Shown: piece after piece, positions 3,501-19,520 of the stretch
Position numbering within the stretch: position 1 is the stretch's first letter
Layout: every line of letters begins with the position of its first letter
Origin: an uncultured Nitrososphaerota archaeon
GTDB lineage: Archaea > Asgardarchaeota > Njordarchaeia > Njordarchaeales > Panguiarchaeaceae
DNA length: 19,520 nucleotides
Assembly: GCA_964636085.1 (NCBI GenBank)
Contig: CAZWPQ010000002.1
Span: 97,249-116,768 of the forward strand
Direction of reading: 5' to 3'
The notes under the pieces: generated by a model
Told to the model about the DNA's origin: nothing
What the model saw: the letters and a program-made list of their open reading frames with translations, nothing else
The model's database searches: none
Translations under genes and position numbers: made by a program

Positions 3501-4526
3501 ATCGACTTTTTAATTATACCTAGCTCCTCAGAATCAATTAAGAATATATCCATATCAGTGAGGAATACCAATATAACGGATCTATATACAAAGTACTATG
3601 TCGTTACAAACCATCGGGGAGTCCTCTTCGATAATGAGACTATCACTGGTATCTATGATACAAGAACCAAATACATAGATGTCCAAGCCGAAGGTGTAAT
3701 CACCATTGCATTTTTCGAGGTCGTTGGTTATGGCAAGACTATAATAGAGGACTATACTGGAAAGTCCGAGATAGCAATGTTGTGGGTCAACACAACTGTG
3801 GACACAAATCCCCCTACGATAGAGTGTCTCAATGGTTCCTACATAGAGTATGAGCTTGGCCTATCAGAGCATTTATTTGTAAAGATGAATGATGAAACAC
3901 CCACCGAATTTGTTGTATATCTAAATGACTCAGAGATAATGAGGAGTGAATATGTTGAGAACTATACGTTATATCTAGACCTAACACCCCACATTACAAG
4001 TCCAGGATTCTACATCATTAAGATTGTTGCAAACGATTCTGAGGGCAATCAAGCAAAGGAGGAGGTAAATGCAACAGTCTTTCCGTCCGAGCCCCCAGTA
4101 ATAACGCTAAGCCCCAATGATACATATTCCATAAAGACAAACGAAACAAAGACACTAATATGGAAGGCGGAGGACAGATCACCCGACATATACAAACTAT
4201 ACATAAACGGCGAGGAGATATATGAGAGCACTTGGAGCAGTGGTGAAGAAATCACATACAACTTCAGCACAAACTATACTGGAACATACAACGTGACGAT
4301 AGTCTTCTACGACAAAGTTGGCCTCTACTCCATGGATACAGTCCAGATAAATGTGACGGAAATAACGACGACAACAACAACTACAGTTACGGAGGAGGAG
4401 AAGAAACTAAACTATCCTCTAATCCTAGCAATAGTTGGGGTATTAGCAGCAGGGCTAATAGCGATAATAATACTAAGAAAAAGAAAGGCCCAAGCTCTAG
4501 CAAAACAAGAAGAAGGAAAAGGGTAA
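504..4526 (+). CDS. Large secreted, C-terminally membrane-anchored cell-surface glycoprotein (beta-helix-like repeats plus two Ig-like domains)
   Basis: The ORF track gives 459..4526. An in-frame TTG at 504 follows GAGGTG (489-494) and yields a classic signal peptide, MKRAILVLILVVSIPVVG. The body is rich in N/S/I/Y/D with short beta-strand periodicity and many N-x-S/T sequons. Two C-terminal Ig-like units follow (DTNPPTI...ANDSEGN; EPPVIT...W..ED..PD.Y....NG...GTYNVT..FYDKVG), then a Thr-rich linker (TTTTTTTVT), a TM helix (LILAIVGVLAAGLIAIIIL) and a basic tail (RKRK). Confidence 0.8.
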   Translation: MKRAILVLILVVSIPVVGIPKGDLTSKSSAKNSPKNRPELQRLIQGSKSPAMVFENDVEVRNSKITGSVEVYGQSEVVLDNVVFYVDYTFIEVMDNAKLIINNSKFLGHDTNPTVYIHLYDNATLYISNTTIDISISWFGIETYNQSYLYLENIRAITRIEAYDSSIVYLGGNISDTYIYAFNQSIIMCYGANLESTPITGHDYARIYVYYSNAWRFYIFDIAMFMSYDSQFDELSGDGSNSVYMYFSNVTDIDLVGEDYFWVENCTISSSFTVDTYDTPNMLGRPGSYGYIINSDIGDLYLYTFQVININNSHISYLHYAKVYEGDLVINETDTIYDTCYDNYVAYDTTIDLSELTSHIFVMNSNNVRISRVDDPDHVYLYNVTNAYFDSKDAWWFYVYAWNSNVDIANCTLRYLHVMAYYSSVDIVNISVNGSITVDVEGSFVYMENIYSVYVTHSSIYMKRSMLLAENVTMEQIRFSSIASYASFEMFNFTNGQFFTIKDNSYVDLSDGKVNTSIELYDSYLSLNNTNVSQLYIKYFMLANGTFEIREGVIDISSSSGDTLNGVFGYANYNVDRFTIDKLEIRNATVTLDDIFSYLYYGYFCTSDIYLYNSSLYGNGVCGVNIELDMYAYNSSIYLESSSIDFLDAENSTLVFNSTNVTEIDLTRGTIKANYSYFDEISIIGDSEVFLYMSNITHGLHTEMSEETIFGELMLPIVNVTAIKTNISELGIVGFGSIELNSCVVEYLYYTFGNATIIDTNITGVLLNNTLFTSGTNIIENNKIVSGSGTSLLNIVGDCHINSIANVLVVEQSPTGPPVSLEVYNSMYLGILGYGGSIRINSTYLNVIFMYDMDSLTMYNVTVNATMFEELMLPISMDYGYIDYVTFIQAIPIFSIEQGYLHNVTLDSPFVVFYNTSANLSHVDVTYIDGVMIMLYSRLLIDNSHIPGISTMNSQFDVNTTTIVYMEIENSTCSMVDSVVYGDTLIVHDNAFLDIEGSKIDFLIIPSSSESIKNISISVRNTNITDLYTKYYVVTNHRGVLFDNETITGIYDTRTKYIDVQAEGVITIAFFEVVGYGKTIIEDYTGKSEIAMLWVNTTVDTNPPTIECLNGSYIEYELGLSEHLFVKMNDETPTEFVVYLNDSEIMRSEYVENYTLYLDLTPHITSPGFYIIKIVANDSEGNQAKEEVNATVFPSEPPVITLSPNDTYSIKTNETKTLIWKAEDRSPDIYKLYINGEEIYESTWSSGEEITYNFSTNYTGTYNVTIVFYDKVGLYSMDTVQINVTEITTTTTTTVTEEEKKLNYPLILAIVGVLAAGLIAIIILRKRKAQALAKQEEGKG

Positions 4527-4665: not shown

Positions 4666-5622
4666 ATGGTGATATATTTGAGGGTAGAGCATGGATATTT
4701 AAAAGTCAAGGATCTAAAAATCTCGAGGCTCGGGCTCGGCACACACCAACTAGGAGCATCATGGGGAGTCCCCAATAAAAATATGGCATTAGAGATAATC
4801 AATACCGCATTAGACAACGGGATAAACTGGATCGATACAGCAGAAACATACAACGACGGTATCTCAGAGAAGTTCATTGGGGAGGCCCTGAAGCGCAGAG
4901 GCGATAGAGAGGACGTGATAATCGTAACAAAAGTATCCATAGAACATCTTAGATATAGGCTCGTATTAAAGGCTGTCGACATGAGCCTTGATAGGCTACA
5001 AACAAACTATGTTGATATATGCCTAATACACTGGCCCGATCCATATGTCCCGGTTAGGGAAACAATATCAGCTCTGGATAAGCTCATCGATGAGGGAAAG
5101 ATAAGATATATCGGTCTATCCAATTTCCCAGCCTGCCTAGTTAGGGAAGCAATCCATTATGCCAGACACGAAATAGTTACAAATCAATTACTATACAACC
5201 TTATAGAACGTGATATCGAGAAAGAAATCCTTCACAAAATGCGGGAATTAGAAATCCCAATAATGGCATACAGCCCCCTAGCCATGGGGTACCTCACCGG
5301 AAAATACTCCAAACCAACAATCAAGAGTGATGACGATCCCCGCAGATTTATCCCATGGGGCATAAACGAGAAAAATTTTGTCCACATAAACAGACTACTA
5401 GACGTAGTAAGGAACATTGCTAAAAAATATGGCAAAACAATCGCACAAGTATCCCTTAATTGGCTCCTAGCCAATGATGATATCTTCCCAGTAGTCGGAG
5501 CCACAAAACCAGAACACGTCCTAGAAAACATCGGCTCCATGGGATGGAGACTCAGACCCGAAGACATCGAAACATTGAACAAAACATCCAAAGAAATCAT
5601 CGAAAAAATGGAATACTGGTAA
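4666..5622 (+). CDS. Aldo/keto reductase family oxidoreductase
   Basis: Motifs LGLGT, IDTAETY (catalytic D/Y), IVTK (K), DICLIHWPD (H), IGLSNF, NQLLYNL, AYSPLAMGYLTGKY and AQVSLNW. An alternative TTG start at 4678 follows GGTGA. Confidence 0.93.
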   Translation: MVIYLRVEHGYLKVKDLKISRLGLGTHQLGASWGVPNKNMALEIINTALDNGINWIDTAETYNDGISEKFIGEALKRRGDREDVIIVTKVSIEHLRYRLVLKAVDMSLDRLQTNYVDICLIHWPDPYVPVRETISALDKLIDEGKIRYIGLSNFPACLVREAIHYARHEIVTNQLLYNLIERDIEKEILHKMRELEIPIMAYSPLAMGYLTGKYSKPTIKSDDDPRRFIPWGINEKNFVHINRLLDVVRNIAKKYGKTIAQVSLNWLLANDDIFPVVGATKPEHVLENIGSMGWRLRPEDIETLNKTSKEIIEKMEYW

Positions 5623-5871: not shown

Positions 5872-6345
5872 TCAAGAATCCTTCTCCACAGATATCCGAG
5901 ACCCAACATCCATCATATAATGCATAGCGAGATACCTTATAAACCCAAGACAAAGTCTCTCATCCCCCGCAACAACAACCTTGCTGGGTAACTCAACACC
6001 GACAAGCAGTCCAAGATCGGAAACCCCAATAGGAAACCTAACGCAATTCACACTCATACAGATAGCATCACGATAACACTTAGTAGTCAATATCTCCTTT
6101 TCCTCTATTTTACCTCCAAAGCTTTTTATCAAATACTCAATAAGATCAGTATTGCTCTTCGGAGCTGAGACGAAAATTTTAGTTCTGTAATAGTCGCCAT
6201 GTTTTGTGGAATAATCATATCTAACTGGAGCCCCGTAGCCAATGAGGGTGGCCTTAAGCATCAGAAGCTTTTCCATCTCTTTCGGGGGCTTAAAACCAAT
6301 ACGTACAATCTCTTCAACATCAAATTCTCTTAGATCCTCAGCCAT
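5872..6345 (-). CDS. Hypothetical protein (157 aa)
   Basis: ATG-started ORF with protein-like composition and an AT-rich promoter-like upstream region; no motif recognised. Confidence 0.65.
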   Translation of the reverse strand: MAEDLREFDVEEIVRIGFKPPKEMEKLLMLKATLIGYGAPVRYDYSTKHGDYYRTKIFVSAPKSNTDLIEYLIKSFGGKIEEKEILTTKCYRDAICMSVNCVRFPIGVSDLGLLVGVELPSKVVVAGDERLCLGFIRYLAMHYMMDVGSRISVEKDS

Positions 6346-6474: not shown

Positions 6475-7266
6475 TTAAATGCCGAGTACGTATCTCCAAA
6501 ATCTTGGACACTCACTACATCTACCCTTCAATTTTCCTGTCCTCTTATAGTACTTAAAAACTTTATCGGTGACCTCTTGCCTGATCCATCTGAGAATATT
6601 CATGATAGCTTCTACACTCCTATTTATGTCGTCTATAGCTTCTCTATACGTCGCGTGTATCTGTTTCTCCACGGATATTATTGCGTCTATAATATCCCCG
6701 GGACTAGCACCCTTTTTTATCTTAGCCACAGGATATGAACCCACCTCTAATGTGTTACTAGATGACGTTAATGAGGTACTTGCATGTTTTTTCACAAAAA
6801 ACTCACCGCTGTATAAGCCATGAATTATTGCTGAACATGCACCATCGATATTTATGTGTTCAGTGCGCGATCCCATATATTCGTTGAGCAACTCTATGAT
6901 CTTCTTTCTAATATCTCTAAGCAATCTTTGTGCATGAGTATTATGTCTGGAAGCCATGTTGAGGAAATTTCTGATGGCTTTCTCTATATCTCTATAATGC
7001 TCTAAAAACAAACGTACCCTACTGGAGAATTCACTATCCATATGAATGATATTCCATTCTATACTTAGGAATTCACTATCCCTTAGGAAAATCTCACCAT
7101 TAATATAATGAACCCTACTGATGATTGATAAAAATCGTTTTGCTCCAGCGATGATTTCCCTATAGTGTCTCACCTTCGCCTTCTGATACCTCTTATACCT
7201 AATACTAGCAAACATAGCACATAGAGTTATGATTGCACTGACTAAGCACTCCACCCAAGATAGCAT
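6475..7266 (-). CDS. Hypothetical protein with N-terminal TM anchor, helical body and C-terminal GxCxxCP motif
   Basis: GGTGG SD-like motif before the ATG; hydrophobic N-terminus (CLVSAIITLCAMFASI) followed by basic RYKRYQKAK; amphipathic helices; LKGRCSECP near the C-terminus. Confidence 0.7.
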   Translation of the reverse strand: MLSWVECLVSAIITLCAMFASIRYKRYQKAKVRHYREIIAGAKRFLSIISRVHYINGEIFLRDSEFLSIEWNIIHMDSEFSSRVRLFLEHYRDIEKAIRNFLNMASRHNTHAQRLLRDIRKKIIELLNEYMGSRTEHINIDGACSAIIHGLYSGEFFVKKHASTSLTSSSNTLEVGSYPVAKIKKGASPGDIIDAIISVEKQIHATYREAIDDINRSVEAIMNILRWIRQEVTDKVFKYYKRTGKLKGRCSECPRFWRYVLGI

Positions 7267-7453
7267 GAACCACCACCATTATTGAGAAATTCTTGGGGAT
7301 TTTTATTAAAAAGGGTAGAAATTGCGACTGGGAGAGCACTGGTGTAGAAATTGATATCTGCTAAGTTGGATGTGCTTGATAATGTTATTAGTATAAACTC
7401 GTAAGCTCCATATCCAGCAAAAAAATAGAAGTATGTAGTCATTTTTATTCACA

Positions 7454-7930
7454 TTAATAGGATATGACTTCATCCAGTATGGAAGCTATATGCGCTGCTA
7501 TCTTACCTCGGACCATCAAACATATTTCATGGTTTTCTACTAATCCTCCCCAAGTGATATTTGCAGATCCTACAATAGCTATTCTCCTGTCGATAATTAT
7601 TACTTTTGCATGGAGATGCCGGCCAGTAATTTTGTTGAAATCAAAAAGTTTAACATTTTTATATTTCTTACACACGTCAAGCAACAGTGTGCGGACATGA
7701 TCTGGCTGGTCGTGAAGACTATCCACTACAATATAAACACGCACTCCATTTTTTGCAGCATTCCTAAGTCTCGCAATTATTGGGTCTATACCAGAGCCGA
7801 ACCTATATGTTGCTATAATTATTTCATATCCCGCGTCCTCAAGTAACTTTAACAGGACCGATTCAAAGGATCTATAGCCTTTCCCTGTGAATAAATACCC
7901 CGTGACAAGGATCTCAATTTCGGAGCTCAT
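7454..7930 (-). CDS. drmC: DISARM phospholipase D-family nuclease DrmC (single HKD domain)
   Basis: HAKVIIID (HxKxxxxD), followed by VGSAN and ENHE. ATGA overlap with the drmB stop; third position in drmA-drmB-drmC order. Confidence 0.85.
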   Translation of the reverse strand: MSSEIEILVTGYLFTGKGYRSFESVLLKLLEDAGYEIIIATYRFGSGIDPIIARLRNAAKNGVRVYIVVDSLHDQPDHVRTLLLDVCKKYKNVKLFDFNKITGRHLHAKVIIIDRRIAIVGSANITWGGLVENHEICLMVRGKIAAHIASILDEVISY

Positions 7931-9777
7931 GGTGGATTCTCCAGTAACAAATGCCTATCAAGCCACATATTTCTGTGTTCACATGACGTCTCAGAAACGA
8001 ATAAACATGCATAACATGCTGACCCAACGTACATACCGTATTTGAATTCTTGCTCGTAACACAGTGGATCGTTTGAACATATTAATGCAAGTTCGTAGGC
8101 TCGTGCTAGCATTTCCTCAAACTTGTCGACCAGCGATATTAAACCACCTAAAGTTCCGTCGGCACCTGGTTGAACGGTGTACAGCACTATTCCTCCCAAG
8201 ACTCCTCCATCAGTTACTTTTAGATATACTCGCTCTCGTATCGATGCAGCAGAATACCCGGAGTCTATTGATAATGCACGTATCAGCAGGTGTGAAAGCG
8301 TATGCCACCACACAAAGGCCGGATGTAACTCTATGGGAAATTGGGGATCCCTAAACAAGTAACTCGAGTATTTTCTTTTCTCTGGCAATCGACTCCTTTG
8401 TTCCTCTAAGGCTTGAAGCCATGCCTTGGCAGATTTGCCAGATAAATCTAACATACCGTCATTTTCGTCGAGTGTAATGAAGATGCCCTCACCATAAAAC
8501 TCCGTGCCAATGAACCATAGATCGTTGTCCCTCTCAAAATACACGGGCACTAGACGTGAGCGCTCAGGATGTGGATTTAGCCTCCTATAACCCACTTGAA
8601 CGATGATTGTGTGGAGCCTAGAAATTGGGACAACGCGGAACATGTGACCCATTGGCCCCTTAACTTTTTCTCTTATACTTCTATAGTCAACATAAAACTT
8701 CACAGGAGCTTGTAGTGCACGATTATAAGGGGGATAGCCTTCCTTAGATGCTCTTAAAAGTGCGTCGAACTCATCCTCAAGCAATCCACTTAGCGTTGAT
8801 GGAATAGGTTTCGTGAGATCGTCTATCGCCGCCTTTATGTCTTTCCATTCATATTTCATTATACTTTCGATGATGCTTTCTGATATGTCCTCCACCTGTT
8901 GCAGGTTATTTAAGATCTCTTTGAACTCTTTCTCAGTCTTTGGACGGTGTGCACGCAATGCATAACGTATTGGAGTTATCGAGAGCAAATCGTGAAGTTC
9001 GGTAGCAGGTGGGGGCACCGTGAACAGAGAGATTATCTCCGTTATTCTTAAATTGGACGCCTGACGTTGAATAATTCTAGCTTCAGCATTACAGTTCCTC
9101 GGTCTATACGGAGCTTCATCAAGGTCTTCTCTCTCTGGATATCGTCCAGTGCACTTGTGTGACATTTTATAGTATGCGTAACCAAGGTTAACCTTCGCTC
9201 CACACTCTGGGCATATAATCTCTATCTGACTCAATTTACCACCTGGCTTCCACTCGAAATACCTCCTATTAGGACATCCTTTATTTTTATGATGAACAAG
9301 CTCAGGCCAGTCAACATCGTCTAGATGCCCATTAGGGCAGGCTAAGACAAATCGTATTGCCTCCTCAGGCCTCTTATTGAACTTAACACCAGACTTTTTA
9401 CACTCTGGACAGCCGTATCTCAAATCGTATAATATCCAATGCTCCGTACACAGAGCCCATCCGGGAAATAGTTTGGTTTTGTAGAGAAGGAGTGTGCCAG
9501 CACCGCTCGTTTCCTCGCTTGTGGGTATTCTACAGATCCTAATTTTACGACTTCCCACATCGTATCTAAGTCTCGTTTGAAGTATGTCTCTAAGAACTTT
9601 CTCAAACCTTCCAGGTTCGCGTATCTCAAAGTCCTCTGGGTTCCTTTTATTGGGCCTGAAAAATCCTCTATCAGGTAACGGTATAATTCTAGGACCGTAG
9701 GGGCTCTCTAGTATAGCACCCGGACCATAAGTTATTACGAATTTTGACTCTCTTATGCTCTGCCTTAATTTAGACAT
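7927..9777 (-). CDS. drmB: DISARM DUF1998 protein DrmB
   Basis: N-terminal ITYGPGA, RFVLACPNGHLDD and GEGIFI motifs. DUF1998 core HTLSHLLIRALSIDSGYSAASIRERVY and DGTLGGL, with C-terminal CSNDPLC...ACYAC...SETSCEHRN. The ORF track starts at 9804; the ATG at 9777 has GGTGA 5 nt upstream, and the ATG at 9783 overlaps the drmA stop (TGATG). Confidence 0.92.
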   Translation of the reverse strand: MSKLRQSIRESKFVITYGPGAILESPYGPRIIPLPDRGFFRPNKRNPEDFEIREPGRFEKVLRDILQTRLRYDVGSRKIRICRIPTSEETSGAGTLLLYKTKLFPGWALCTEHWILYDLRYGCPECKKSGVKFNKRPEEAIRFVLACPNGHLDDVDWPELVHHKNKGCPNRRYFEWKPGGKLSQIEIICPECGAKVNLGYAYYKMSHKCTGRYPEREDLDEAPYRPRNCNAEARIIQRQASNLRITEIISLFTVPPPATELHDLLSITPIRYALRAHRPKTEKEFKEILNNLQQVEDISESIIESIMKYEWKDIKAAIDDLTKPIPSTLSGLLEDEFDALLRASKEGYPPYNRALQAPVKFYVDYRSIREKVKGPMGHMFRVVPISRLHTIIVQVGYRRLNPHPERSRLVPVYFERDNDLWFIGTEFYGEGIFITLDENDGMLDLSGKSAKAWLQALEEQRSRLPEKRKYSSYLFRDPQFPIELHPAFVWWHTLSHLLIRALSIDSGYSAASIRERVYLKVTDGGVLGGIVLYTVQPGADGTLGGLISLVDKFEEMLARAYELALICSNDPLCYEQEFKYGMYVGSACYACLFVSETSCEHRNMWLDRHLLLENPP

Positions 9778-9782
9778 CCGCA

Positions 9783-12700
9783 TCACCTTCTCTTCTTTCG
9801 CCAAGGATATAAATCAAACGCTATTGTGCCTTCAATATCTCTCAGTGACTGAGGTGCATTTTGAAAGACAATATCCTTCTCAGCATGTTTATGTTTTAGA
9901 TCTCCAAGAACCACATGGAAATTTGTCGTGAAATATTCGTTATACCTGAGGTTATCATTGTGCTTCTTTGCAAGCGACTTCCAACGGTCAATTAATGAAT
10001 GTATAAATCTTTCAAGCCAAACAATATTTGGTCTTCGTGGATCTGGCTGTTCCTTAGCTCTCCAAGTGATATAATTTACTATTAAATCTCTAATACTACG
10101 TAAACATTTTCCCCTTTTGCCGCTATCATCTAGTAGCTTGATTAGATGTGCATATTCGTTCAAATAGATAGGATCCTTTAAAGTTAAACCATGTGTTCGA
10201 TAATTTACATTCCTGAGCATCGACACGATAACAGGTCCTAATGCTCGCTCTAGGGTTCCGACCGAGAATGGTGCCGCAGTTATCTCTTCAACTGATTTAT
10301 CAAGCATTCGATGGTACCCACAGAAGAACTCATAGTGGCTCAAATCACGTGGTCTTGAGGATCTGTATAGTGTTACAACAAGACCTCCTCTCATCCTACC
10401 AACTCGTCCAGTGGCCTGAATGTATGCTGATGTCGTTTTGGGCTGCCCATGAACTACCATGGAGGAAAGCCTCCCTACATCCACCCCGGTTCCGAACATT
10501 GACGTAGCAAATAATGCGTCTGGTGCATTGTGGGGATACTTGCGGTTTAGTATATTCAGTATCGACGGTAAATCTGTTGATTTTGTCCGGCTCGATAATT
10601 CAAGTACGGTCTCATCAGAAATATGTCGTCTTCTCTTACCAGCAATCTTCTGGAGCCTCTCAGGTATGTCTTGGCGGTATAGACTTAACGCCCCTGCAAG
10701 CTCCCTTACAGCGTTGAAGTAGCCAACGATTGTCCAAAACTTGTCAACTTCTGCAGGATTTACCCCCATATCAGAAAGATCTCTAGTGGCTTGAAGCATT
10801 CTTGCCCATATCCTAACTATTGGAGTTAACCCACCCTTTCCGGGGGCTAAAATACCCATGTACACCCTACCGGGTCTGTCCTCGTGTAATGGGTGTCTAT
10901 CGAGGAATTTAATGAAAAACCTGTCGTCGATATCTGGGCTTGGAGGCGGGAACAGAGCCAAATCTCTGATGAAAAGACTTCTTACATGTTCATGTGCTCT
11001 CTTTATTGTAGCTGTCGATGCTATGTATTTTGGCCTATGGTTTTTTATTGCTGCTAGGAACTCAACAGCGGATTCATATATCCCGACTAGGCTCCCAAGG
11101 GGCCCCTCAATGAGATGTAATTCATCTTGAATTATCAAGTCGGGAGGGTCTAAACGTGGAATTGGCTTGTATAAATTCAAGCCATAGTCCTCTGGGTGTT
11201 CACTGTCTGATTTTCCACTTAGTCGCTTTGATGCGTAAGGAATCAAGTAAGGTCTGTAGTACCCATATAGAGCGTGATAGTACTCAACATTCCCAAAAAG
11301 TGCGGCCGCACGGGCTTCGAAGGCAAGCCTTGCAATCTTGTCTACTGTGGCGATGAGGAATGAAGGTGGATTGTGATATATCTGTTCATCAACCGTCAAT
11401 GCTGGAATTGGTATTCGAGTAGACACAAACTGTCGCGAACCGCCGTTAAATGCATCACATCGGCAAAATTCTGGAACCATCTTGAAGACGTTTCCGTCAG
11501 GACTCTCTACAACACGCTTGTTAATTTCAATTCTGGTTTTCTGGAACAGTCTGAAAATCATATTCCTCGTTTGGTTTTTAGCTCGCTTTCTACCTTTAAC
11601 TGACCCACCGATGAATCTTAGGTCGAATAATGGCGAAAGTGGTGCTCCCTCAACCCAGAGAACTCCTTTGTTAAGTTTGCATTCTGGATTCGGGCAGAAT
11701 ATTTCAAAGTTGTACTTCTTCTCAGCACCGTATGGTGTCTTGAATTTAAGGATAAAGTAGCCTGGTCGCGATGGTCTTGCACAGACAATTTCCACTCGAA
11801 TTCCCTTCCCCCGTAGAAATTCCTTTAAATAATTCCATAGCTTATCTAAATCGTCAGACTTGATCGGGTTTCCCGAGGTAATCTTAAGTATCACTGTATA
11901 GTAATTTTTTCTCACTTGAACAACTTTTCTGTGTGTCACTCTCAAACCAATGACACCATTACTTTCAAAGAATTCGTTTATGCACCCCTGAAGCTGGTCG
12001 GCATCGAGATCTACTTCGGTTCTCACAAGCCAGTATATTATATGTTCTTTGTTTGATTCTAGACCCATTTCTGGTATGCTTAATATAGAGCCACATACCG
12101 GACAGTTCAGGACTTGGGCAGGTTCTCCTTGTACTATCGCTCCCTCCTTTATTTTATCTTCTAAGATACTAAGCGCCCCAGCGATTACTTGTTTGGTGTC
12201 TTGGCTCCATGTATCATGGAGCCTGTTCGGCGTCACATGGCCTCCTACCCAAAGCCCTATTGAAATTCGAGACGTCCCCCATATGAAGTCATCCTTTATT
12301 CCACACTTCTTCGGTCGCCATCCAATAGGTTCACCGCTGCCAAGACCGTAGACTCGAAGATATTCGCATGCAGTTATCATCCTAAGGGCTCTTCTAAACT
12401 GCTGTATCGTAAGAAGTCGCAGGGTGTATCTAAGAATCACAGCAACGCCAGTCCCTGTTTTATCGAGATTCTCTTCACTTCTTTTTAAGGCTTTCCGTCT
12501 GCGATAGGCTATAGCAAATGCTGCTAGAGCAAGGTAAGCTTCGGTTTTTCCAGCACCGGTTGGAACCCATAACAAATCACACACGTTTCTGTAATGAGAG
12601 TCCTCATTGACTATGGACTCCAATACTAGTAGAATGAATGCCAATTGAAAGGGGCGCCAAGTAAATTTTCCTCTCTTCGACCACTTTGCTTGAAGATCTA

Positions 12701-14006
12701 TAACTTTGTTGGCAAAACAAAATGCTAAACGTGCATCCTCATCCTTGATTAGAAGTTCTATCCCAGAACGTATACGTTGAAGGGTCTCCTCGCACTTTGC
12801 TATGATTCTTTCTGCTATTTTTCTCTCTAGCTCAGGCTGTGCTGAAATCTTACGTTTCCAATGTTTGATCCATTTTTTGTATGCTAGAACAATAGGCCTC
12901 AATGCCCGTTTAATCTCTTCCGGATCCCAAAGCTCAGCAAGTTCTTCAGCGCTCAGAACGGGCGGATCCCCATATTCCCCGCGCCAACCGATTTCGGGAA
13001 ATTCAACATTGCAAATGGGAGTGAACTCCGTCCTTGCATCTGGACATGCGAATGTCTCCCTAACGTCACTTCCATAAAGTTTTTCGACAAATTCTCCATC
13101 AACCCAATAGAAGGGTGGTGCTTTTGGTCTCAATTTTTCAATCTGAGGATTCTTAACAGGCTTCTCTGGATCGATGTCTCTCCATATTGCTGAGCACATG
13201 TGACCTCGAGCCTTAGCCGCCTTCTTCTGGTAGAGAAACTCCAGTTCCTCCCTTCTCGTGCTCATACCTTTAAGAGAGTATTGCTGAGAGACTAGACGCG
13301 TACCATCTGTCAACTTAACACGTATCTGAGGTTGGAAAATATGCTTCTCAATGAATTCATGCATATCTTTAGTAGGTCCCTGTTCTACACGCATGTTATT
13401 GATTAAGAATATGCTCACATGGATCTTGCTACCGTTTAGTCTTCGTGATAGTATATATAAACATATCTCAGCATCTTTCTTGGTGGTCTTACCTTTCTCA
13501 TTAAGACAATAGGATATCACCCTCTGTTTTTCTGGATCTATCGTAATAGGGTCTTTAGAGTACCATGCTCTCGGATAACGTTTCCATATATAAACATCCC
13601 CGTGTTTTTCTCTAAGGTATCGAGCCCACGTAATACAAATTTGCATCTTGGGCTCTCCACTCTCCTTCTCCACAACGAAAGAGAGACCTATTGATCGCGG
13701 GAGATTTTTTGGATTCAACACAGGCTGAACGAGTGCTGCAATGGTGACATCAACATCCTCATCCTCCACATCCTCTTCAAAGCTTTCCGCAAGTTTCGAA
13801 GGTAAAGATCCTTCAACATTCTCATCCACAATAGCTGATTCCGTAGGCTCCTTCACTGCTGGAGCTAGAACACCAGTTATGTACTCAGATAGAGGTGTAT
13901 CCCCTGGGGGCAAAGTCTCATAAATGCCATTCCTAGGTCCTAAAACTTCCTTTGCGAGCTCGCTGATAAGGAAAGCTCTTACCAGCAGATTCATTATACT
14001 CACCAT
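9783..14006 (-). CDS. drmA: DISARM SF2 helicase DrmA
   Basis: Q motif WRPFQLAF, Walker A PTGAGKTEAY, RYTLRLLTIQQF, IATVDK, Walker B IIQDELH, STAT, VGYFNAVREL, ATSMFGTGVDV, motif VI YIQATGRVGR and RPRDLSHYE. Immediately upstream of the DUF1998 and PLD genes. An alternative SD-supported start lies at 13994. Confidence 0.92.
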   Translation of the reverse strand: MVSIMNLLVRAFLISELAKEVLGPRNGIYETLPPGDTPLSEYITGVLAPAVKEPTESAIVDENVEGSLPSKLAESFEEDVEDEDVDVTIAALVQPVLNPKNLPRSIGLSFVVEKESGEPKMQICITWARYLREKHGDVYIWKRYPRAWYSKDPITIDPEKQRVISYCLNEKGKTTKKDAEICLYILSRRLNGSKIHVSIFLINNMRVEQGPTKDMHEFIEKHIFQPQIRVKLTDGTRLVSQQYSLKGMSTRREELEFLYQKKAAKARGHMCSAIWRDIDPEKPVKNPQIEKLRPKAPPFYWVDGEFVEKLYGSDVRETFACPDARTEFTPICNVEFPEIGWRGEYGDPPVLSAEELAELWDPEEIKRALRPIVLAYKKWIKHWKRKISAQPELERKIAERIIAKCEETLQRIRSGIELLIKDEDARLAFCFANKVIDLQAKWSKRGKFTWRPFQLAFILLVLESIVNEDSHYRNVCDLLWVPTGAGKTEAYLALAAFAIAYRRRKALKRSEENLDKTGTGVAVILRYTLRLLTIQQFRRALRMITACEYLRVYGLGSGEPIGWRPKKCGIKDDFIWGTSRISIGLWVGGHVTPNRLHDTWSQDTKQVIAGALSILEDKIKEGAIVQGEPAQVLNCPVCGSILSIPEMGLESNKEHIIYWLVRTEVDLDADQLQGCINEFFESNGVIGLRVTHRKVVQVRKNYYTVILKITSGNPIKSDDLDKLWNYLKEFLRGKGIRVEIVCARPSRPGYFILKFKTPYGAEKKYNFEIFCPNPECKLNKGVLWVEGAPLSPLFDLRFIGGSVKGRKRAKNQTRNMIFRLFQKTRIEINKRVVESPDGNVFKMVPEFCRCDAFNGGSRQFVSTRIPIPALTVDEQIYHNPPSFLIATVDKIARLAFEARAAALFGNVEYYHALYGYYRPYLIPYASKRLSGKSDSEHPEDYGLNLYKPIPRLDPPDLIIQDELHLIEGPLGSLVGIYESAVEFLAAIKNHRPKYIASTATIKRAHEHVRSLFIRDLALFPPPSPDIDDRFFIKFLDRHPLHEDRPGRVYMGILAPGKGGLTPIVRIWARMLQATRDLSDMGVNPAEVDKFWTIVGYFNAVRELAGALSLYRQDIPERLQKIAGKRRRHISDETVLELSSRTKSTDLPSILNILNRKYPHNAPDALFATSMFGTGVDVGRLSSMVVHGQPKTTSAYIQATGRVGRMRGGLVVTLYRSSRPRDLSHYEFFCGYHRMLDKSVEEITAAPFSVGTLERALGPVIVSMLRNVNYRTHGLTLKDPIYLNEYAHLIKLLDDSGKRGKCLRSIRDLIVNYITWRAKEQPDPRRPNIVWLERFIHSLIDRWKSLAKKHNDNLRYNEYFTTNFHVVLGDLKHKHAEKDIVFQNAPQSLRDIEGTIAFDLYPWRKKRR

Positions 14007-14295
14007 AAAAAATATAATTTCTTTCGCATTTAAAAATGTTTCGTTTGGTTATTTAAGAAAGCATACGATACAGGCAATGTAAATCATAATGAAATATGAT
14101 TCATTATGATAAATTATCATAAATTATTTTGAAATATGTTATTAAAACACAGCTTTTAAAGGAATACATCATCGAACGACTAGGCACCAAAGTCAGGAAG
14201 CATGTGGTTTATGCGTAATATTCCGTATATTCTTAATTTTCAACCATTTTTATAAGCCAATTTTTGTTATTATGTATGTATGGAGAGGAGTTATC
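14007..14295. promoter_or_regulatory. Divergent AT-rich promoter region between drmA and the methyltransferase operon
   Basis: TTTTTAAA on the minus strand (14029-14036), about 25 nt upstream of drmA. TTTATAA on the plus strand (14249-14255), upstream of the SD GGAGAGGAG (14282-14290). Confidence 0.55.
14083..14122. repeat. Two overlapping perfect inverted repeats (operator-like)
   Basis: ATCATAATGAA (14083-14093)-N6-TTCATTATGAT (14100-14110), and TTATGATAA (14104-14112)-A-TTATCATAA (14114-14122). Confidence 0.7.
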
Positions 14296-14682
14296 ATGGT
14301 TAAAAGCACAAAGAAGTATAAGACACTCAAAATTCCTCCTCCGATATTGGACTGCATTAACATTGCTAAAGCGAAAATATTAATGAGCATTAACACATTC
14401 ACGAATTTACCGGTAGATGTTCTTAGCCCTAAGAAATGCCCAATTTGTGGACACGAACTCGAGCCTTTTGAATATGATACTGGACGCACGGATCTGCTAG
14501 GATACGTGTTCTGTAGGAATTGTCGCTATAAGCAACCCGTTGTGTCTGACACAGATAAACTTGAAATATCTAAGATTTCGAAATATCTGAGCGTTGGCAC
14601 CTTAATTGGTTTTGGCATAGCGTCACTACTTTTCCTGATGAAAGAGGAGATCTCTGGGAAAAAAGACTTTGTAGAGGGGTAA
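14296..14682 (+). CDS. Small protein: RHH-like N-terminus, Zn ribbon (CPICG...CRNC), C-terminal TM helix
   Basis: The ORF track gives 14272; the ATG at 14296 follows the SD GGAGAGGAG. Contains KYKTLKIP followed by a helix, two CxxC pairs and hydrophobic LSVGTLIGFGIASLLFLM. The stop is 2 nt before the MTase ATG. Confidence 0.7.
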   Translation: MVKSTKKYKTLKIPPPILDCINIAKAKILMSINTFTNLPVDVLSPKKCPICGHELEPFEYDTGRTDLLGYVFCRNCRYKQPVVSDTDKLEISKISKYLSVGTLIGFGIASLLFLMKEEISGKKDFVEG

Positions 14683-14684
14683 CG

Positions 14685-15740
14685 ATGTATAGACCCACGG
14701 TTGTCGATCTATTCTGCGGTATGGGGGGTCTATCCTATGGATTTAAGCTATTGGGCGTATTTAAAATAAAGGGTGTTGATATAAATCACTACGCGACGCT
14801 CTCATATAGATTCAACAACATCGGAGAAACACATACTTGGGACATAAGATCTAAATTCCCAAGAAAATACCTCCCTCTAATTGTTGTAGGAGGACCTCCA
14901 TGCAAGCCATGGTCCGCGGTGAATGTTAGATTGAGGCGAAGATCCCATCCTGATTATAGTCTAATCTCTAAGTTTTTTGAATATATTAGGTGGATTAACT
15001 TAAGGTCAAAGGGCAAGAAACCAGCAGTTGTAGTACTGGAAAATGTGCCTCCCTTGAGGAGAGATCCAATTCTCCAAAAAGAGCTTGAAAAAATGCAAAA
15101 AATTGGCTTCTCCCACAGTGCACGTGTGATATCCTATTATGACTTCGGTGCTGCTAGCGGTAGAAGAAGACTTTTTGTGGTTCTAGTTAATGAAAACTTA
15201 GTACAATTAAGCGGACACGGTGCGGAGATCATCTTCGGTATACTCGAGGAATTTAGAAATAGAGTCAAAAGAAGACGAGTTGTTCGGGATGTTATCTCAG
15301 ATCTAGAGAATGTCGAGCGAAATAGCATCCCTGACCACGAGTGGCCAATTCTAAAGACAATACGCAGATACATTAATCTTTATAGGACGAATAAATACGG
15401 GTGGTATGTTCTAAGGTGGGATCAACCTGCTAAAAGTTTTGGGAACATCATGAAGACTTATATCCTACATCCTTCTGCTTGGGACTGGATTCATAATGGT
15501 CATAGTTCGGAGCGTTTTAACTCTGTGAGAGTTATCTCCGTGCGAGAGGCTATGAGGATTATGGGCTTTGGTGATAGCTTTACTAAGGATAAGGAACTTC
15601 AAGAGCTCAGCTATATTTTCCCTAAATCCGTTCCAATGAGCCACAAGTATCAAATGGTCGCTGATGCCGTTAGTCCCATCTTCTCAAAGTACTTAGCAGA
15701 AGCTATTCTAAAATTTCTCCAAGAGCATGGCTTAATGTAG
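14685..15740 (+). CDS. DNA (cytosine-5)-methyltransferase, DrmMII-like by context
   Basis: Motif I DLFCGMGG, motif II GVDIN, motif IV GGPPC (catalytic Cys), motif VI LENV, motif VIII RRR, motif IX SVREAMRIMGF and motif X QMVADAVSP. Confidence 0.92.
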   Translation: MYRPTVVDLFCGMGGLSYGFKLLGVFKIKGVDINHYATLSYRFNNIGETHTWDIRSKFPRKYLPLIVVGGPPCKPWSAVNVRLRRRSHPDYSLISKFFEYIRWINLRSKGKKPAVVVLENVPPLRRDPILQKELEKMQKIGFSHSARVISYYDFGAASGRRRLFVVLVNENLVQLSGHGAEIIFGILEEFRNRVKRRRVVRDVISDLENVERNSIPDHEWPILKTIRRYINLYRTNKYGWYVLRWDQPAKSFGNIMKTYILHPSAWDWIHNGHSSERFNSVRVISVREAMRIMGFGDSFTKDKELQELSYIFPKSVPMSHKYQMVADAVSPIFSKYLAEAILKFLQEHGLM

Positions 15741-15751
15741 GTTCCTCAGAT

Positions 15752-16477
15752 ATGAACAATCAGCAAAAGAAACCGCGTCGCATAATCAATATGTTAAGAC
15801 ATAAGATAAAAATCTATGGATCTACTTTCTCTGAGTTGATTGTGAAAAATTCGGGCAATATCATTGAAGATTGGCCATGGAGGCGAGCGAAGGATCCGTT
15901 TTTGATAATGATTACAGAGATGCTCCTCCAGAGAACCCGAAGGAGTCAAGTGCTAAGAGTGTATAATAAAATTGTTTCAGCAATGAATAAACATGGGAGC
16001 CTATGTGCCGTTCTCGAGATCTACGGTAAAGAGAGATTAATAAAGTTATTGAAATCTCTAGGTCTTATGTGGAGAGTTATTAATGTAATTAAAGCTGTAG
16101 AATTCGTATGTGAAAGATATGGCGGGAGAGTACCTAGCGATACCAAAAGTTTAACAAAAATTCCTGGTGTTGGCCAATATGTATCGAGAGCAGTACTATG
16201 CTTAGCCTTTGGGGAAGATGTGGCGATGGTTGACACCAATGTGGAGCGAATAGTATTTAGGTTCTTTTTAGGATGTGACCCACCTAAAATTGAAATTAGA
16301 AGGAATAGAGAATTTCTTAAACTAATTGATTCGCTGATTCCAAAAGGAAACGCTAGGGTGTTTAACCTCACGCTCATAGATCTGGGATCCAAAATCTGCC
16401 TACCAACGAGACCCAATTGCAGAAATTGTCCTCTTAATCTCCAATGCAAGTACGCTAAGACAGAGAACTTAAATTAA
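15752..16477 (+). CDS. mig: HhH-GPD DNA glycosylase with 4Fe-4S cluster; Mig/TDG-type T/G (U/G) mismatch glycosylase
   Basis: PWR...DP....TEMLLQRT, helix-hairpin-helix IPGVGQY (Tyr, not the lyase Lys of EndoIII), catalytic VDTN, FNL (MutY typically has FNQ) and CLPTRPNCRNCPLNLQC (Cx6Cx2Cx5C). No MutY C-terminal NUDIX-like domain. Located 11 nt downstream of a C5-MTase. Confidence 0.8.
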   Translation: MNNQQKKPRRIINMLRHKIKIYGSTFSELIVKNSGNIIEDWPWRRAKDPFLIMITEMLLQRTRRSQVLRVYNKIVSAMNKHGSLCAVLEIYGKERLIKLLKSLGLMWRVINVIKAVEFVCERYGGRVPSDTKSLTKIPGVGQYVSRAVLCLAFGEDVAMVDTNVERIVFRFFLGCDPPKIEIRRNREFLKLIDSLIPKGNARVFNLTLIDLGSKICLPTRPNCRNCPLNLQCKYAKTENLN

Positions 16478-16721
16478 AGTCTTGTGTCCCTGTTCTTTAA
16501 AAATATACGATTAAAGATAGAATTGTATGATAAATTAAAATATTTTTAAAAATTTCATGATTATTCTTCTATAATTAGTTAGGCATATGATGTATATGCG
16601 TCAACTGGCCATGTTATGTGAATATTACATCAGAAAGATTGGATTCGTGATTCAATTCGTAATCCTAATGGGCTCTATGGAATGCAAATTAATTTAAGCA
16701 TTTGTAATGAAGGTGTGCTAT

Positions 16722-18320
16722 ATGTTTGTTGAAAAGAAACCAAAGGGATGGTTAATTAATAATTATGTCGTTTCGAACCCCTTTGTTATATTCCATATAG
16801 CTGCTGAGATTATAAAGCATGGTGGAGAGCAGAACCTCGCCGACATCGCAAATACATTCCTAAGCACCGGAGACGAGGGATTTGGCAGTTACCTTTACAA
16901 CAAAATTTTAAACCTAACTATAGAGTCTTTTTATAATATTTTTAGAGAGGCGTATCCTTCAACGATAAGGGATAAGCCTAAGAGGGAAAAAGAACTTAAA
17001 AGATGGTTTCGGAAGGCCTTTTATAGGGTATGGTCTGCCGTGGTTAATTGGTATTCTGTCGTGTCCACACTAGAAAAAGCAAAAAAAGAGCTTAGACACG
17101 AAATGATAGGTGAGTACATCGACTTATTTAAAATGGCACCCTTAGAGTTTGTTCGCTTCACTACTCAGAAGGCTATTCCGCTCTACATCCAAAGTAAACG
17201 TAAGAGCGTCACATCGTCTAAACAAAATATTATTGTTAGAACATTAAGCATGTTGGACATGCAGTCATTTAAATACATTGTTCCAATAACAGCCCTTGTA
17301 ACTTTCTATGCCTACTCGGAGCCACTCTACATAATTTTCTCGATAATATACAATTTTGTTGCCAAGTACTTTAAAGAACTAAATTATCTCCTAGACTTAG
17401 GCAAGAAAATCATAACATCATCCATCGGTGGACTCAAACTCACAGTAAATGTAGACAAGCTTAGAAGAATAGTGTACCAAGCATTCGTGTCTAGGCTTAT
17501 CTTCACGATTGTAGGATCACAATACGAGAATAGAGTGCGAATACCAATAGAGTTTTTAATCAGTTTAGTATTACGCAGAAGGCGAGGATGGACTTGGTCT
17601 GAACTCTATGAAGAGAATCCAATACCCTTAGAAATATACCGTATAGTAAGTTGTTTGTTTTCTAAAAAGCCTGCCACCATGGTTTCTATCGCTTCAGGCA
17701 AACATGAGGACGATTTCGAACCAATCAAATTCAAATCAACACTTGATCTGCCTGATGATTATACGCATCTCAACTCATTCACAATCTCGGAAACAGCCCT
17801 TGCTTTATCTCTAGCGATGAAGTTTACCTTTTTAGCAATACTACAGTTGCCTGAGCATGAAATCGATCAAGGTTATCTAAAGAAAATGCTCTTAAGCTAT
17901 ATATTTACTCCTGCCGATGTTCTTATAGCATATTATAAAATTAAGGGCAAAACGCAAACAAGTGGATATGTCAGGATTGACGATTTAACAAGGGAGATCA
18001 TTAAGTCATACTCGGACAAGAAACTACTTAGTGGAACGCAGAGTATCTTTGACAGATATCTTGTTCTTGCCAACAATGAATCTAAGAGTTCGATACGTTC
18101 GATTGTAGAGGGGTTAATCCGTGGAGAAATACCCCTCTCTAACATACGAAGTTTAGGTTTCTCAGTAGGCTTCTGGCACGCATTACTAGGAAGCAGATAC
18201 ATGGATGTTCACACAGCTATTAGAGAGAAAGGTTTGGATATATATACTTATCGAAGACCGGTTGATGGATTTTTGTTCAATTTTAATATAACTGATTCGG
18301 AGGAGGTGATGTTTTTATGA
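16722..18320 (+). CDS. Hypothetical protein (~532 aa), mostly helical, coupled to the downstream ATPase
   Basis: Long ORF (track start 16707). The ATG at 16722 has AGGTG 6 nt upstream and AATTTAAG at 16691-16698. Its stop overlaps the next ATG (ATGA). No catalytic motif recognised. Confidence 0.75.
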   Translation: MFVEKKPKGWLINNYVVSNPFVIFHIAAEIIKHGGEQNLADIANTFLSTGDEGFGSYLYNKILNLTIESFYNIFREAYPSTIRDKPKREKELKRWFRKAFYRVWSAVVNWYSVVSTLEKAKKELRHEMIGEYIDLFKMAPLEFVRFTTQKAIPLYIQSKRKSVTSSKQNIIVRTLSMLDMQSFKYIVPITALVTFYAYSEPLYIIFSIIYNFVAKYFKELNYLLDLGKKIITSSIGGLKLTVNVDKLRRIVYQAFVSRLIFTIVGSQYENRVRIPIEFLISLVLRRRRGWTWSELYEENPIPLEIYRIVSCLFSKKPATMVSIASGKHEDDFEPIKFKSTLDLPDDYTHLNSFTISETALALSLAMKFTFLAILQLPEHEIDQGYLKKMLLSYIFTPADVLIAYYKIKGKTQTSGYVRIDDLTREIIKSYSDKKLLSGTQSIFDRYLVLANNESKSSIRSIVEGLIRGEIPLSNIRSLGFSVGFWHALLGSRYMDVHTAIREKGLDIYTYRRPVDGFLFNFNITDSEEVMFL

Positions 18321-19520
18321 GCTCAAGCGGTTCCTTACCAGATCTCTTGTCAAAATTAGGAAACAAAATAGACCTTCCATCACCATTCCTTAGTCGTACA
18401 ATTAGAATTGGATATACCACGAGGGAAGAATTACCATTTATTAGAATAAAGTTGAATTCGCCATTTGATATATTAGAGACTGATGTATCTATAGCTGACA
18501 GAACTGTTATACTTATTCTAGGCTCTAAGGGCACTGGAAAATCGTTTCTGGCTGTTTATCTTCGTAATAAATTTGAAAAAGAAGGCTTTACAGTTATACC
18601 TGTCGACTGCCAACAAGAAAAAATTGGGAGTTTAGAGGACTACCTTACTAAGTACATCTCGAATAAACTTAATGTTAAAGATGGAAGTGGTTCTGTAGCG
18701 GAGCTATTAAACCAGTCTATATCAAAATTCGGTAGGGTTGCTATAATCATTGATGACTTTAGTGATACATTAAAGAGAGATTTCAGCAATGCTGTCGAGG
18801 TCGTCAGTAATCTCCTTGAACTTGCTGTGAAATTCAGAGGTGGATTGGGTGGCAAACTGTTCAAGTTAGCTATGGTCATGCAAACAGATGAGGGAGACCC
18901 ACTTAAATACACAGTTGACTTCTTAAATGAACTTTATTCACTTGCGACTGAGAGGAAAAGCTTTGCTTATGATATTCTCTTTGGCTATGGTTTTAGAAAT
19001 CCTATCGATATATTCGCTGAAAAATCCACATTTTCTAGAATTGAAGACGAGGAAAGTCTCGAGCGAGCTATGTTCAGGGAGGCCTCCGCGGTCTTTGTTG
19101 ATGGGCTTTGGTTCAAAATTAGAAGCTTCTTAGCTATGGATCGAAGCATTTATGATGTCCTAATGCGTGTTAAAAAGGTAATTTATGAGTTTTTTGATTT
19201 CTATTTAATGAATTCTTCAGGGTTCATAAAACAACTTAAGAGTGCAACCCAAGGTAGTGATAAGTCTGAGGAAACTGTAATCAAAGAAATGGCAAAAGTA
19301 GCATTGGAAATCATAAACAGAGGTAATGTAATTAATGAATTTATAAATGATGAAGTGCTGGATGTTCTCGCAATGCATCTAATTCTCCAGCCTACAAAGT
19401 ACATTAAGCTTGAGCATGGTGAAGAAACACTAATATGTGAAGGCACTACGGGGGGTTTAGGTGGGTTTAATGCTGTGGCTGTATTAGACGTCTTGGACAG
19501 GATTTATGATGGAGCTATAA
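18317..19520 (+). CDS. P-loop NTPase (AAA+/STAND-like ATP-binding protein), 3'-truncated by the window
   Basis: Manual translation from ATG 18317 (SD GGAGGTGA at 18302-18309) stays open for 401 codons to the window end: MSSSGSLPDLL...VILILGSKGTGKS (Walker A, 18521-18544)...VAIIIDD (Walker B, ~18740-18757)...LAMVMQT. It is absent from the ORF track because no stop falls within the window. Confidence 0.85.
   Translation, partial: MSSSGSLPDLLSKLGNKIDLPSPFLSRTIRIGYTTREELPFIRIKLNSPFDILETDVSIADRTVILILGSKGTGKSFLAVYLRNKFEKEGFTVIPVDCQQEKIGSLEDYLTKYISNKLNVKDGSGSVAELLNQSISKFGRVAIIIDDFSDTLKRDFSNAVEVVSNLLELAVKFRGGLGGKLFKLAMVMQTDEGDPLKYTVDFLNELYSLATERKSFAYDILFGYGFRNPIDIFAEKSTFSRIEDEESLERAMFREASAVFVDGLWFKIRSFLAMDRSIYDVLMRVKKVIYEFFDFYLMNSSGFIKQLKSATQGSDKSEETVIKEMAKVALEIINRGNVINEFINDEVLDVLAMHLILQPTKYIKLEHGEETLICEGTTGGLGGFNAVAVLDVLDRIYDGAI

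Follow-up and report, generated by a model that had tools for sequence, protein, structure and literature searches.

Among the described systems closest to the locus examined here is the class 2 DISARM of Bacillus paralicheniformis 9945a, which is reported to comprise drmE, drmA, drmB, drmC and drmMII (10.1101/2021.12.28.474362, PMC9252829). In this system, deletion of drmE is reported to have abolished protection, and according to the same report class 2 DISARM bears drmE just “on occasion” (10.1101/2021.12.28.474362); the PADLOC type II model makes DrmE obligatory (PMC9252829). For class 1, the system of Serratia sp. SCBI offers a structural reference (7S9V, PMC9142583). An archaeal system with a C5 methylase, Freyarchaeia DISARM-II, was reported with DrmD and DrmE (PMC11529989), and Bell et al. 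(10.1101/2025.09.15.676423) placed many undescribed DISARM-like branches among “uncharacterized DISARM-like classes”, in a text with 0 occurrences of the word glycosylase. Outside DISARM, the enzyme Mig.Mth is reported as a T/U:G mismatch glycosylase (Horst and Fritz 1996, cited in PMC3260424; PDB 1KEA).

The locus described here was found in a 19,520-nucleotide stretch of archaeal DNA (the window). Like the Bacillus class 2 system, it combines the drmABC core with a C5 methylase and has neither an adenine methylase nor an SNF2 helicase; it differs in having no DrmE by profile, a conserved Mig/Vsr gene, a DrmA of a long-form lineage and a short DrmC. With the Serratia class 1 system it shares the DrmA helicase core, the position of the trigger loop, the C-terminal arm motif and a DUF1998 DrmB, but not DrmD or DrmMI. 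We consider it likely that the locus is a five-gene DISARM with its own DrmA lineage, made of a C5 methylase, a T:G-repair enzyme, DrmA, DrmB and DrmC, that follows class 2 logic with DrmE as an optional part. We found no description of this subtype in the literature.

The drmABC core and the class of the locus

ORF calling on the window placed drmA (9783-14006, 1407 aa), drmB (7927-9804, 625 aa) and drmC (7454-7930, 158 aa) on the minus strand, overlapping one another and followed by a 263-aa ORF. Head-to-head with these, the plus strand carries, in order, a Zn-ribbon/TM ORF (14272-14682), the C5 methylase gene (14685-15740), an HhH-GPD glycosylase gene (15752-16477), a 537-aa ORF and a P-loop ATPase gene. 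The original prediction had described a coupled drmABC facing a C5 methylase and a Mig-type glycosylase, and the ORFs agree with the PADLOC and NCBIfam profiles in showing that these are the genes present.

DrmA is a long-form SF2 helicase that scored 1583 bits against PADLOC PDLC02571 and 1538.6 bits against the NCBIfam long form NF038326 (cut-off 999), and matched 7S9V with an E value of 2e-117. Its Walker A (PTGAGKT) and Walker B (QDELH) motifs are present, and alignment showed that it keeps its helicase motifs as well as the SLR-x-I/V-E motif at the C terminus. Residues 46-102 form an acidic, trigger-loop-like segment with 14 D/E against 3 K/R in 57 aa. The first ~130 residues of class 1 DrmA, an N-terminal EVE-like region, are missing from this protein. 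In RecA1 about 150-190 aa are inserted, so that about 230 residues here stand against about 49 in class 1. DrmB, a DUF1998/MZB protein, matched PF09369, PDLC02583 (680 bits) and NF038324 (466.8 bits, cut-off 240), and is encoded by a separate gene adjoining drmA with no helicase fusion. DrmC, a short PLD nuclease (PF13091; PDLC02614, 151 bits), matched NF038319 at positions 76-232 only, with a score under the cut-off; it is without the first ~75 positions of this class 1 model and without the class 1 N-terminal helical bundle. The DISARM core is therefore present by its genes, namely a DrmA helicase, an adjoining DrmB and a PLD nuclease after drmB. Dpd, BREX, Druantia and ARMADA were considered for this helicase and for the 537-aa/ATPase pair and rejected, with no DpdG, DpdH or BrxA match and with the helicase and DUF1998 unfused; a BrxC_BrxD match in the profile search was weak (E 0.012) and lay over a P-loop alone.

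As had been predicted, neither DrmD nor a recognisable DrmE was found. The SNF2 profile NF038317 had no match in the window or in the assembly (83% complete), the PADLOC and NCBIfam DrmE profiles matched nothing among the window proteins or in the same 83% complete assembly, and no DrmMI adenine methylase was detected among the window proteins, in sequence up to position 19520. The DrmE search was likewise negative in five genomes bearing related loci. The class 2 combination of DrmMII with the core triplet is seen here and in 33/34 relatives, while the strict PADLOC type II model, with its required DrmE, leaves the locus out. Since the Bacillus system needs drmE, a DrmE-less system must differ mechanistically or use an unrecognised partner. 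In 7/34 relatives an accessory protein of ~790 aa with OB-fold and winged-helix features may be such a partner; it was not found in this assembly (83% complete). As a candidate for DrmE itself it was set aside, having no PADLOC or NCBIfam match, and it may still be a remote homologue. The 801-aa neighbour in locus L091 is not DrmE by NCBIfam, so the “class II” label of this locus in the DrmA tree is unconfirmed.

Conservation of the cassette in a separate DrmA lineage

The DrmA tree separated this lineage from class 1 and the other references with 100/100 support and a stem of 0.95, in a reference set without a confirmed DrmE-bearing Bacillus DrmA, and so upheld the predicted distinctness of the lineage. 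Locus L026, which we identify with the Freyarchaeia DISARM-II locus, has a short-form DrmA outside this clade. The original label of a non-canonical subtype is thus sound for a distinct lineage without DrmD and recognisable DrmE. It nevertheless goes too far, since drmE is found in class 2 just “on occasion” and lineage-specific profiles for these proteins already exist in PADLOC and NCBIfam. Despite these profiles, strict detection (PADLOC type II wants DrmE) would miss this compact and widespread lineage.

As the relatives were picked for their resemblance to this DrmA, and several of them are closely related to one another, the following counts overstate independence; 18/34 assessable loci have less than 7 kb on one side. 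Among the 34, which come from archaea and bacteria, a C5 methylase gene was found in 33 and drmC in 32. Every one of the 34 has a T:G-repair gene, which is Mig-type in 30 and Vsr in four (confirmed for L019), never both together. The conserved unit is methylase-Mig-drmA-drmB-drmC, widespread in archaea and present in some bacteria. It stands as a bare five-gene cassette amid unrelated genes in Moorella (by an integrase), Thermococcus barophilus, T. cleftensis, an armatimonadete and Methanosarcina. Because cultured hosts, namely T. barophilus, T. cleftensis and Moorella thermoacetica, carry the bare cassette, questions on DrmD/E-free defence by DrmAB with a C5 methylase, and on the cost of 5-methylcytosine at high temperature, are testable.

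The methylase and the Mig-type glycosylase

The predicted methylase and glycosylase calls were both corroborated. The 351-aa methylase (DrmMII) scored 280 bits against PDLC02655, has an intact catalytic PC motif and is the sole PF00145 match in the assembly. In the genome, CCGG, GCGC, GGWCC, CCWGG and GCWGC are depleted; as several motifs are depleted alike, the depletion of CCWGG singles out no methylase target.

The best PDB match of the 241-aa glycosylase is Mig (1KEA, E 1e-38), with which it shares the HhH-GPD fold and the Fe-S motif of four cysteines, without a MutY C-terminal domain. Its residues E56, R61, Y143 and D161 align with Mig E42, R47, Y126 and D144, so that the structural features of a Mig enzyme are all present. 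Of these, we take Mig E42, R47 and D144 to be functional residues. The gene for Mig.Mth belongs to a plasmid-borne type II restriction-modification system. As with Mig.Mth and dcm-vsr, the gene here adjoins that of a C5 methylase; unlike Mig.Mth, it is attached to a DISARM cassette. A tyrosine at the lyase position, as in Mig Y126, marks a monofunctional T:G glycosylase (PMC9945173).

All activities in the scheme that follows are inferred. Judging from its family, the methylase would place 5-methylcytosine on host DNA. By analogy with the Serratia structure (PMC9142583), DrmA and DrmB would form a helicase complex restrained by the trigger loop, which would load on unmethylated DNA with 5' overhangs, hydrolyse ATP and stop incoming DNA from replicating, and DrmC may degrade that DNA. 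The glycosylase, if it acts as Mig.Mth does, would excise T or U opposite G after deamination of 5-methylcytosine or cytosine, and base-excision repair would then restore a methylatable site, at a cost of deamination expected to grow with temperature. In four relatives Vsr would fill the job of the glycosylase.

The glycosylase or Vsr might instead take part in attack and so stand in for DrmD and DrmE: the nicks or abasic sites that it makes in DNA that enters the cell or is partly methylated would give DrmAB the ends on which it loads. A repair gene is as constant as the methylase (34/34 loci), it lies directly upstream of drmA in 18/30 relatives with Mig and stays beside drmA in L041, where the methylase gene is elsewhere. 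Moreover, DrmAB requires a 5' overhang, and this DrmA is without the EVE-like region, for which a role in reading modified bases has been predicted. The residues nevertheless fit the monofunctional T:G glycosylase Mig, with tyrosine at the lyase position, and Mig and Vsr, which are unrelated but share a known role in repair, replace each other. The Mig gene also keeps to the methylase gene, adjoining or fused to it (fusion in L049) in 29/30 relatives as well as in the window, and is retained across a change of methylase family (21 short-type, 12 other); a methylase-Vsr pair is even found next to a class 1 system (L092). We therefore regard a role in attack as improbable. Equally doubtful is its extension, in which the lineage would be a third DISARM class that does without DrmD and DrmE since Mig or Vsr makes the DNA ends that activate an EVE-less DrmAB.

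Since its gene goes with that of the methylase, the glycosylase most likely repairs deaminated 5-methylcytosine and makes no antiviral attack, as the analogy with Mig suggests. The predicted “integral” role of a repair glycosylase holds for the constant presence of the gene, but the enzyme is integral only as the partner of the methylase. This pairing of methylase and repair gene is itself an old theme, and the more exciting extra parts of the locus are most likely bystanders.

Neighbouring genes and the head-to-head layout

The 263-aa ORF (6475-7266, minus strand) starts 187 nt past the drmC stop and encodes an N-terminal hydrophobic helix. On the plus strand, the 537-aa ORF (16707-18320; 532 aa if counted from its second Met) overlaps by 4 nt with the gene for an AAA/STAND-like ATPase (18317 to beyond 19520; AAA_22, E 4e-8). 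We treat these three as neighbours of uncertain membership and the Zn/TM gene as a local neighbour. The ATPase is incomplete at 401 aa because the window stops at the contig end; no contig in the assembly overlaps this end, and two other assemblies stop earlier. For the 136-aa Zn/TM protein, predicted as RHH/Zn/TM, profiles detected the Zn ribbon alone, the RHH-like start being a call by eye.

According to the original prediction, the 537-aa protein and one or more ATPases stand in for DrmE and DrmD. The pair lies 229 nt after mig on the same strand with its mutual overlap, 12 nt of the intergenic palindrome described below recur exactly upstream of it, and the lineage does differ in its accessory genes from locus to locus. 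The Zn/TM, 263-aa, 537-aa and ATPase genes, however, are all absent from 36 related loci (best E 0.7 or worse across about 600 kb), so that the predicted co-occurrence of the plus-strand neighbours with drmABC did not materialise, an outcome that the original prediction had itself named as refuting, and complete genomes hold the cassette without such a pair. The 537-aa protein resembles neither the DrmE profiles nor, by profile, the ~790-aa accessory; it had no match in Pfam, PADLOC, NCBIfam, PHROGs or the ESM Atlas, no relative but itself among 1.84 billion cluster representatives, and a structure model with a pTM of 0.23. The ATPase, the only one in the window besides DrmA, is AAA-like and not SNF2, with just generic P-loop matches in 300 genomes, generic AAA clusters only in the Atlas and a single-sequence model with a pLDDT of 42; a weak test for homologues among longer proteins found none. 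We thus hold a replacement of DrmE and DrmD by this pair to be highly improbable. The two are most likely chance neighbours and not new parts, and the five-gene reading that we favour would have them as a separate coupled pair, independent of the cassette, in the same variable region. Zn/TM homologues in the same phylum likewise sit away from DISARM, and the Zn/TM gene loses its proposed place as a conserved member.

Nor is the divergent layout a trait of the subtype, as MTase-Mig-drmA-drmB is co-directional in 17 relatives. In a same-genus genome (G002), homologues of the Zn/TM gene and of a 157-aa gene lie 3 kb apart, co-directional, with other genes between them. Flipping 14272-16477 recovers both this arrangement and the usual MTase-Mig-drmA order, and the head-to-head layout therefore probably arose by a local inversion of the Zn/TM-MTase-Mig block in this genome. 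No clear inverted repeats mark the ends of the proposed inversion, the best being an AT-rich match of 15/17. Codon usage and GC showed no mark of a foreign origin of the cassette.

The 265-nt, AT-rich spacer between drmA and the Zn/TM gene holds two overlapping, perfect inverted repeats (14083-14122; 11-6-11 and 9-1-9), each pattern being unique in the assembly; an arm of at least 11 arose in 4/300 shuffles. From their sequence, these repeats could serve as an operator, and the spacer could drive both arms.

A further alternative is that the cassette has ceased to be antiviral here or never was, and is a mobile module of methylase and helicase that is decaying or passive and was split apart by the inversion. 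Its order is rearranged relative to all relatives, its distribution in the phylum is patchy (5/400 genomes above the cut-off), and the relative in L022 is broken by frameshifts. We nonetheless find this reading unlikely, as all five cassette frames are full length with intact catalytic motifs, the spacer could still drive both arms, and the intact relatives L017, L032, L034, L059 and L060 also have altered gene orders.

Gene content and protein identities

The window forms the final 19.5 kb of its contig in an assembly of 2.41 Mb (83% complete), and near-identical DNA is contained in two hydrothermal-vent runs, either of which is a possible source. All ORFs named in the original prediction were present. 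Mutually overlapping drmA, drmB and drmC genes on the minus strand are separated by an AT-rich spacer of 265 nt from a plus-strand run made of a 136-aa Zn/TM gene (14272-14682), a C5 methylase gene and an HhH-GPD glycosylase gene. A 537-aa ORF (16707-18320) follows 229 nt past the glycosylase, then an ATPase gene (from 18317) that ends with the contig at 401 aa. Overlapping perfect palindromes were observed in the divergent spacer (14083-14122); an exact 12-nt piece of these is repeated upstream of the 537-aa gene (16526-16542), with one further copy elsewhere in the assembly. At the other end, an aldo/keto reductase gene (4666-5622) is the last ordinary gene ahead of the variable region, and the gene at 459-4526, unrelated to the DISARM finding, encodes a surface protein of 1355 aa that combines Ig/PKD-like domains with a Thr-rich linker and is anchored in the membrane at its C-terminus.

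A single PADLOC model stood out for each of DrmA (1583 bits, next same-name model 656), DrmB (680 and 125), DrmC (151 and 69) and the methylase DrmMII (280 and 70). The window DrmA also passes the cut-off of a dedicated NCBIfam 'long form' DrmA model, and this lineage is therefore already present in curated libraries. In line with the predicted lack of drmD and drmE, models for both proteins matched nothing in the 83% complete assembly. The closest solved structure to the glycosylase was the mismatch glycosylase Mig (1KEA, 136 bits vs 114 for MutY); its residues E56, R61, Y143 and D161 align in register with Mig E42, R47, Y126 and D144, the four Fe-S cysteines are present and the MutY tail is absent.

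Conservation of the cassette

Window-type DrmA was found in 36 distinct loci, 34 of them with sufficient flank for assessment (at least 7 kb on both sides in 16 only). Named hosts include the archaea Thermococcus, Methanosarcina, Methanocellaceae, Bathyarchaeia, Nitrosarchaeum and Thorarchaeota, as well as Moorella, Chloroflexota, Armatimonadota and sphingomonads. In this set, chosen by likeness to the window DrmA and including several close kin, six-frame profile scans detected a C5 methylase in 33/34 loci and drmC in 32/34 (it is missing in locus L041); every locus had a T:G-repair gene. This gene was Mig-type in 30 and Vsr in four (L019, where it was confirmed separately, L023, L053 and L078), never both together. 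The proposed integral glycosylase is thus supported only as a partner of the methylase.

The Zn/TM, 263-aa (6475-7266, minus strand), 537-aa and ATPase genes were found in no related locus (best tblastn E of at least 0.7 over approximately 600 kb). The 537-aa protein matched only itself among 1.84 billion representatives and nothing in any family library; as an orphan absent from the other members, it cannot define a subtype. The ATPase, of AAA/STAND type with Walker A and B motifs, gave generic P-loop matches only against 300 genomes of the phylum. Both proteins, originally put forward as substitutes for DrmE and DrmD, are most likely bystanders. Homologues of the Zn/TM protein in the same phylum are located away from DISARM, preceding unrelated genes near cas1 in the same-genus genome G002 and a Schlafen AlbA gene in genome G275. 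From these contexts the Zn/TM gene looks like a lineage gene heading variable cassettes and not the conserved operon member that had been predicted.

No DrmD orthologue was found within the cassette among related loci, two of which have other SNF2-like helicases 3-5 kb off it, and the DrmE model had no match in five genomes with related loci. An uncatalogued protein of ~770-870 aa adjoins drmA or drmC in 7/34 loci (L017:2329-4704, L032:2740-5130, L034:2122-4518, L037:7582-9951, L039:13505-16126, L078:7640-9940 and L102:15995-18373). Its structural model, a confident one (pLDDT 87), begins with a helical part and contains OB-like barrels as well as winged helices in tandem; the fold weakly resembles HIN/CST and SelB domains. 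The protein is a candidate occupant of the DrmE slot in this DrmA lineage; it was not found in the window's assembly. A GHKL ATPase/histidine-kinase gene, mostly with a receiver-domain gene, adjoins the methylase or Vsr in four loci (L037:2461-5684, L053:3486-7029, L019:21616-23990 and L102:18410-20410). In the element-like stretch L100:7237-9920 the methylase is headed by an RHH gene, and mig is separated from drmA by an EcoRII-C nuclease gene. In a Methanocellaceae contig (L022:10001-15785) drmA and drmB are split into several pieces by frameshifts or assembly errors.

DrmA lineage, classification and layout

In trees built with FastTree (39 rows) and IQ-TREE (17 rows, LG+G4), window-type DrmA branches apart from the class 1 and other reference proteins on a long, fully supported stem; it is a distinct lineage relative to this small reference set, which does not include a confirmed DrmE-bearing system. 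The N-terminal part of class 1 DrmA (~130-150 residues), an EVE-like domain according to Bell et al. (10.1101/2025.09.15.676423), is missing from its members, and a region that spans 36-51 residues in references is 180-230 residues long in them. Two features are retained, an acidic segment in the place of the trigger loop and the arm motif at the C-terminus; by position I1391 is likely the counterpart of Serratia V1296. DrmC of the lineage (~155-185 aa) is without the N-terminal bundle of most DrmC.

The 'distinct subtype' originally proposed stands in part: the locus has its own DrmA lineage and a repair gene, but the orphan pair is most likely not a part of it and the original class 2 definition applies, since that definition, as quoted in 10.1101/2021.12.28.474362, gives core genes plus a C5 methylase, with drmE only 'on occasion'. 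The locus falls outside only the strict PADLOC type II rule (PMC9252829), which requires DrmE. Judged by its sequence, the locus is a real and intact class 2 DISARM variant whose repair gene is linked to the methylase. The variant is undescribed in the literature searched, yet present in profile catalogues: no papers linking DISARM to a glycosylase were found in that literature, and the account by Bell et al., which speaks of 'many uncharacterized DISARM-like classes', does not include the window-type class. The profile of the relatives suggests an Asgard archaeon as host; among them is a genome whose DISARM resembles the Freyarchaeia system as described.

The head-to-head layout, predicted to be a subtype trait, occurs in no related locus. 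Seventeen have MTase-Mig-drmA-drmB(-drmC) in a single direction, and Thermococcus and Moorella have drmABC-MTase-Mig. In G002 the Zn/TM homologue shares a strand with a homologue of the 157-aa gene found at 5872-6345 in the window, 3 kb away. Flipping 14272-16477 recovers both this arrangement and the usual MTase-Mig-drmA order. The most economical history is therefore one local inversion that followed insertion, which probably produced the window layout; no end repeats were found to confirm it. The 157-aa ORF shows 48% identity to the first 150 residues of its 352-aa G002 counterpart, which lies near cas1 and a helicase; the shorter window ORF is possibly truncated.

Long-form DrmA was above cut-off in 5/400 genomes of the phylum; four assemblies from the same genus (75-81% complete) yielded no copy. 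The closest relatives of the window DrmA (51%) are not the phylum's other examined copy (38%), which points to horizontal acquisition.

Proposed role of the repair gene

By family, the methylase would mark self DNA. DrmAB, autoinhibited by a loop and loading on 5' overhangs as in the Serratia work (PMC9142583), would load on unmethylated invading DNA and stall it. DrmC is described as dispensable in both tested DISARM classes (10.1101/2021.12.28.474362). The glycosylase would repair T:G mismatches arising from 5mC deamination, a role suggested because it tracks the methylase and is exchanged for Vsr: the Mig-type gene adjoins or is fused to the methylase gene in 29/30 loci, a repair glycosylase is retained when the methylase is of another type (21 short-type, 12 other), and Vsr, which is unrelated but known for the same repair, takes its place in some loci. 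This pattern fits the function described for Mig.Mth, the repair of such mismatches at high temperature; Mig is not limited to thermophiles, being found here in Methanosarcina and Methanocellaceae too. In L049:7922-9922 a Mig-type glycosylase is naturally fused to a C5 methylase directly upstream of drmA; at the equivalent place L053, closely related to it, carries Vsr and another methylase. One C5 methylase only was found in the window's assembly, despite strong depletion of five motifs, CCGG, GCGC, GGWCC, CCWGG and GCWGC (0.58-0.73 of expectation).
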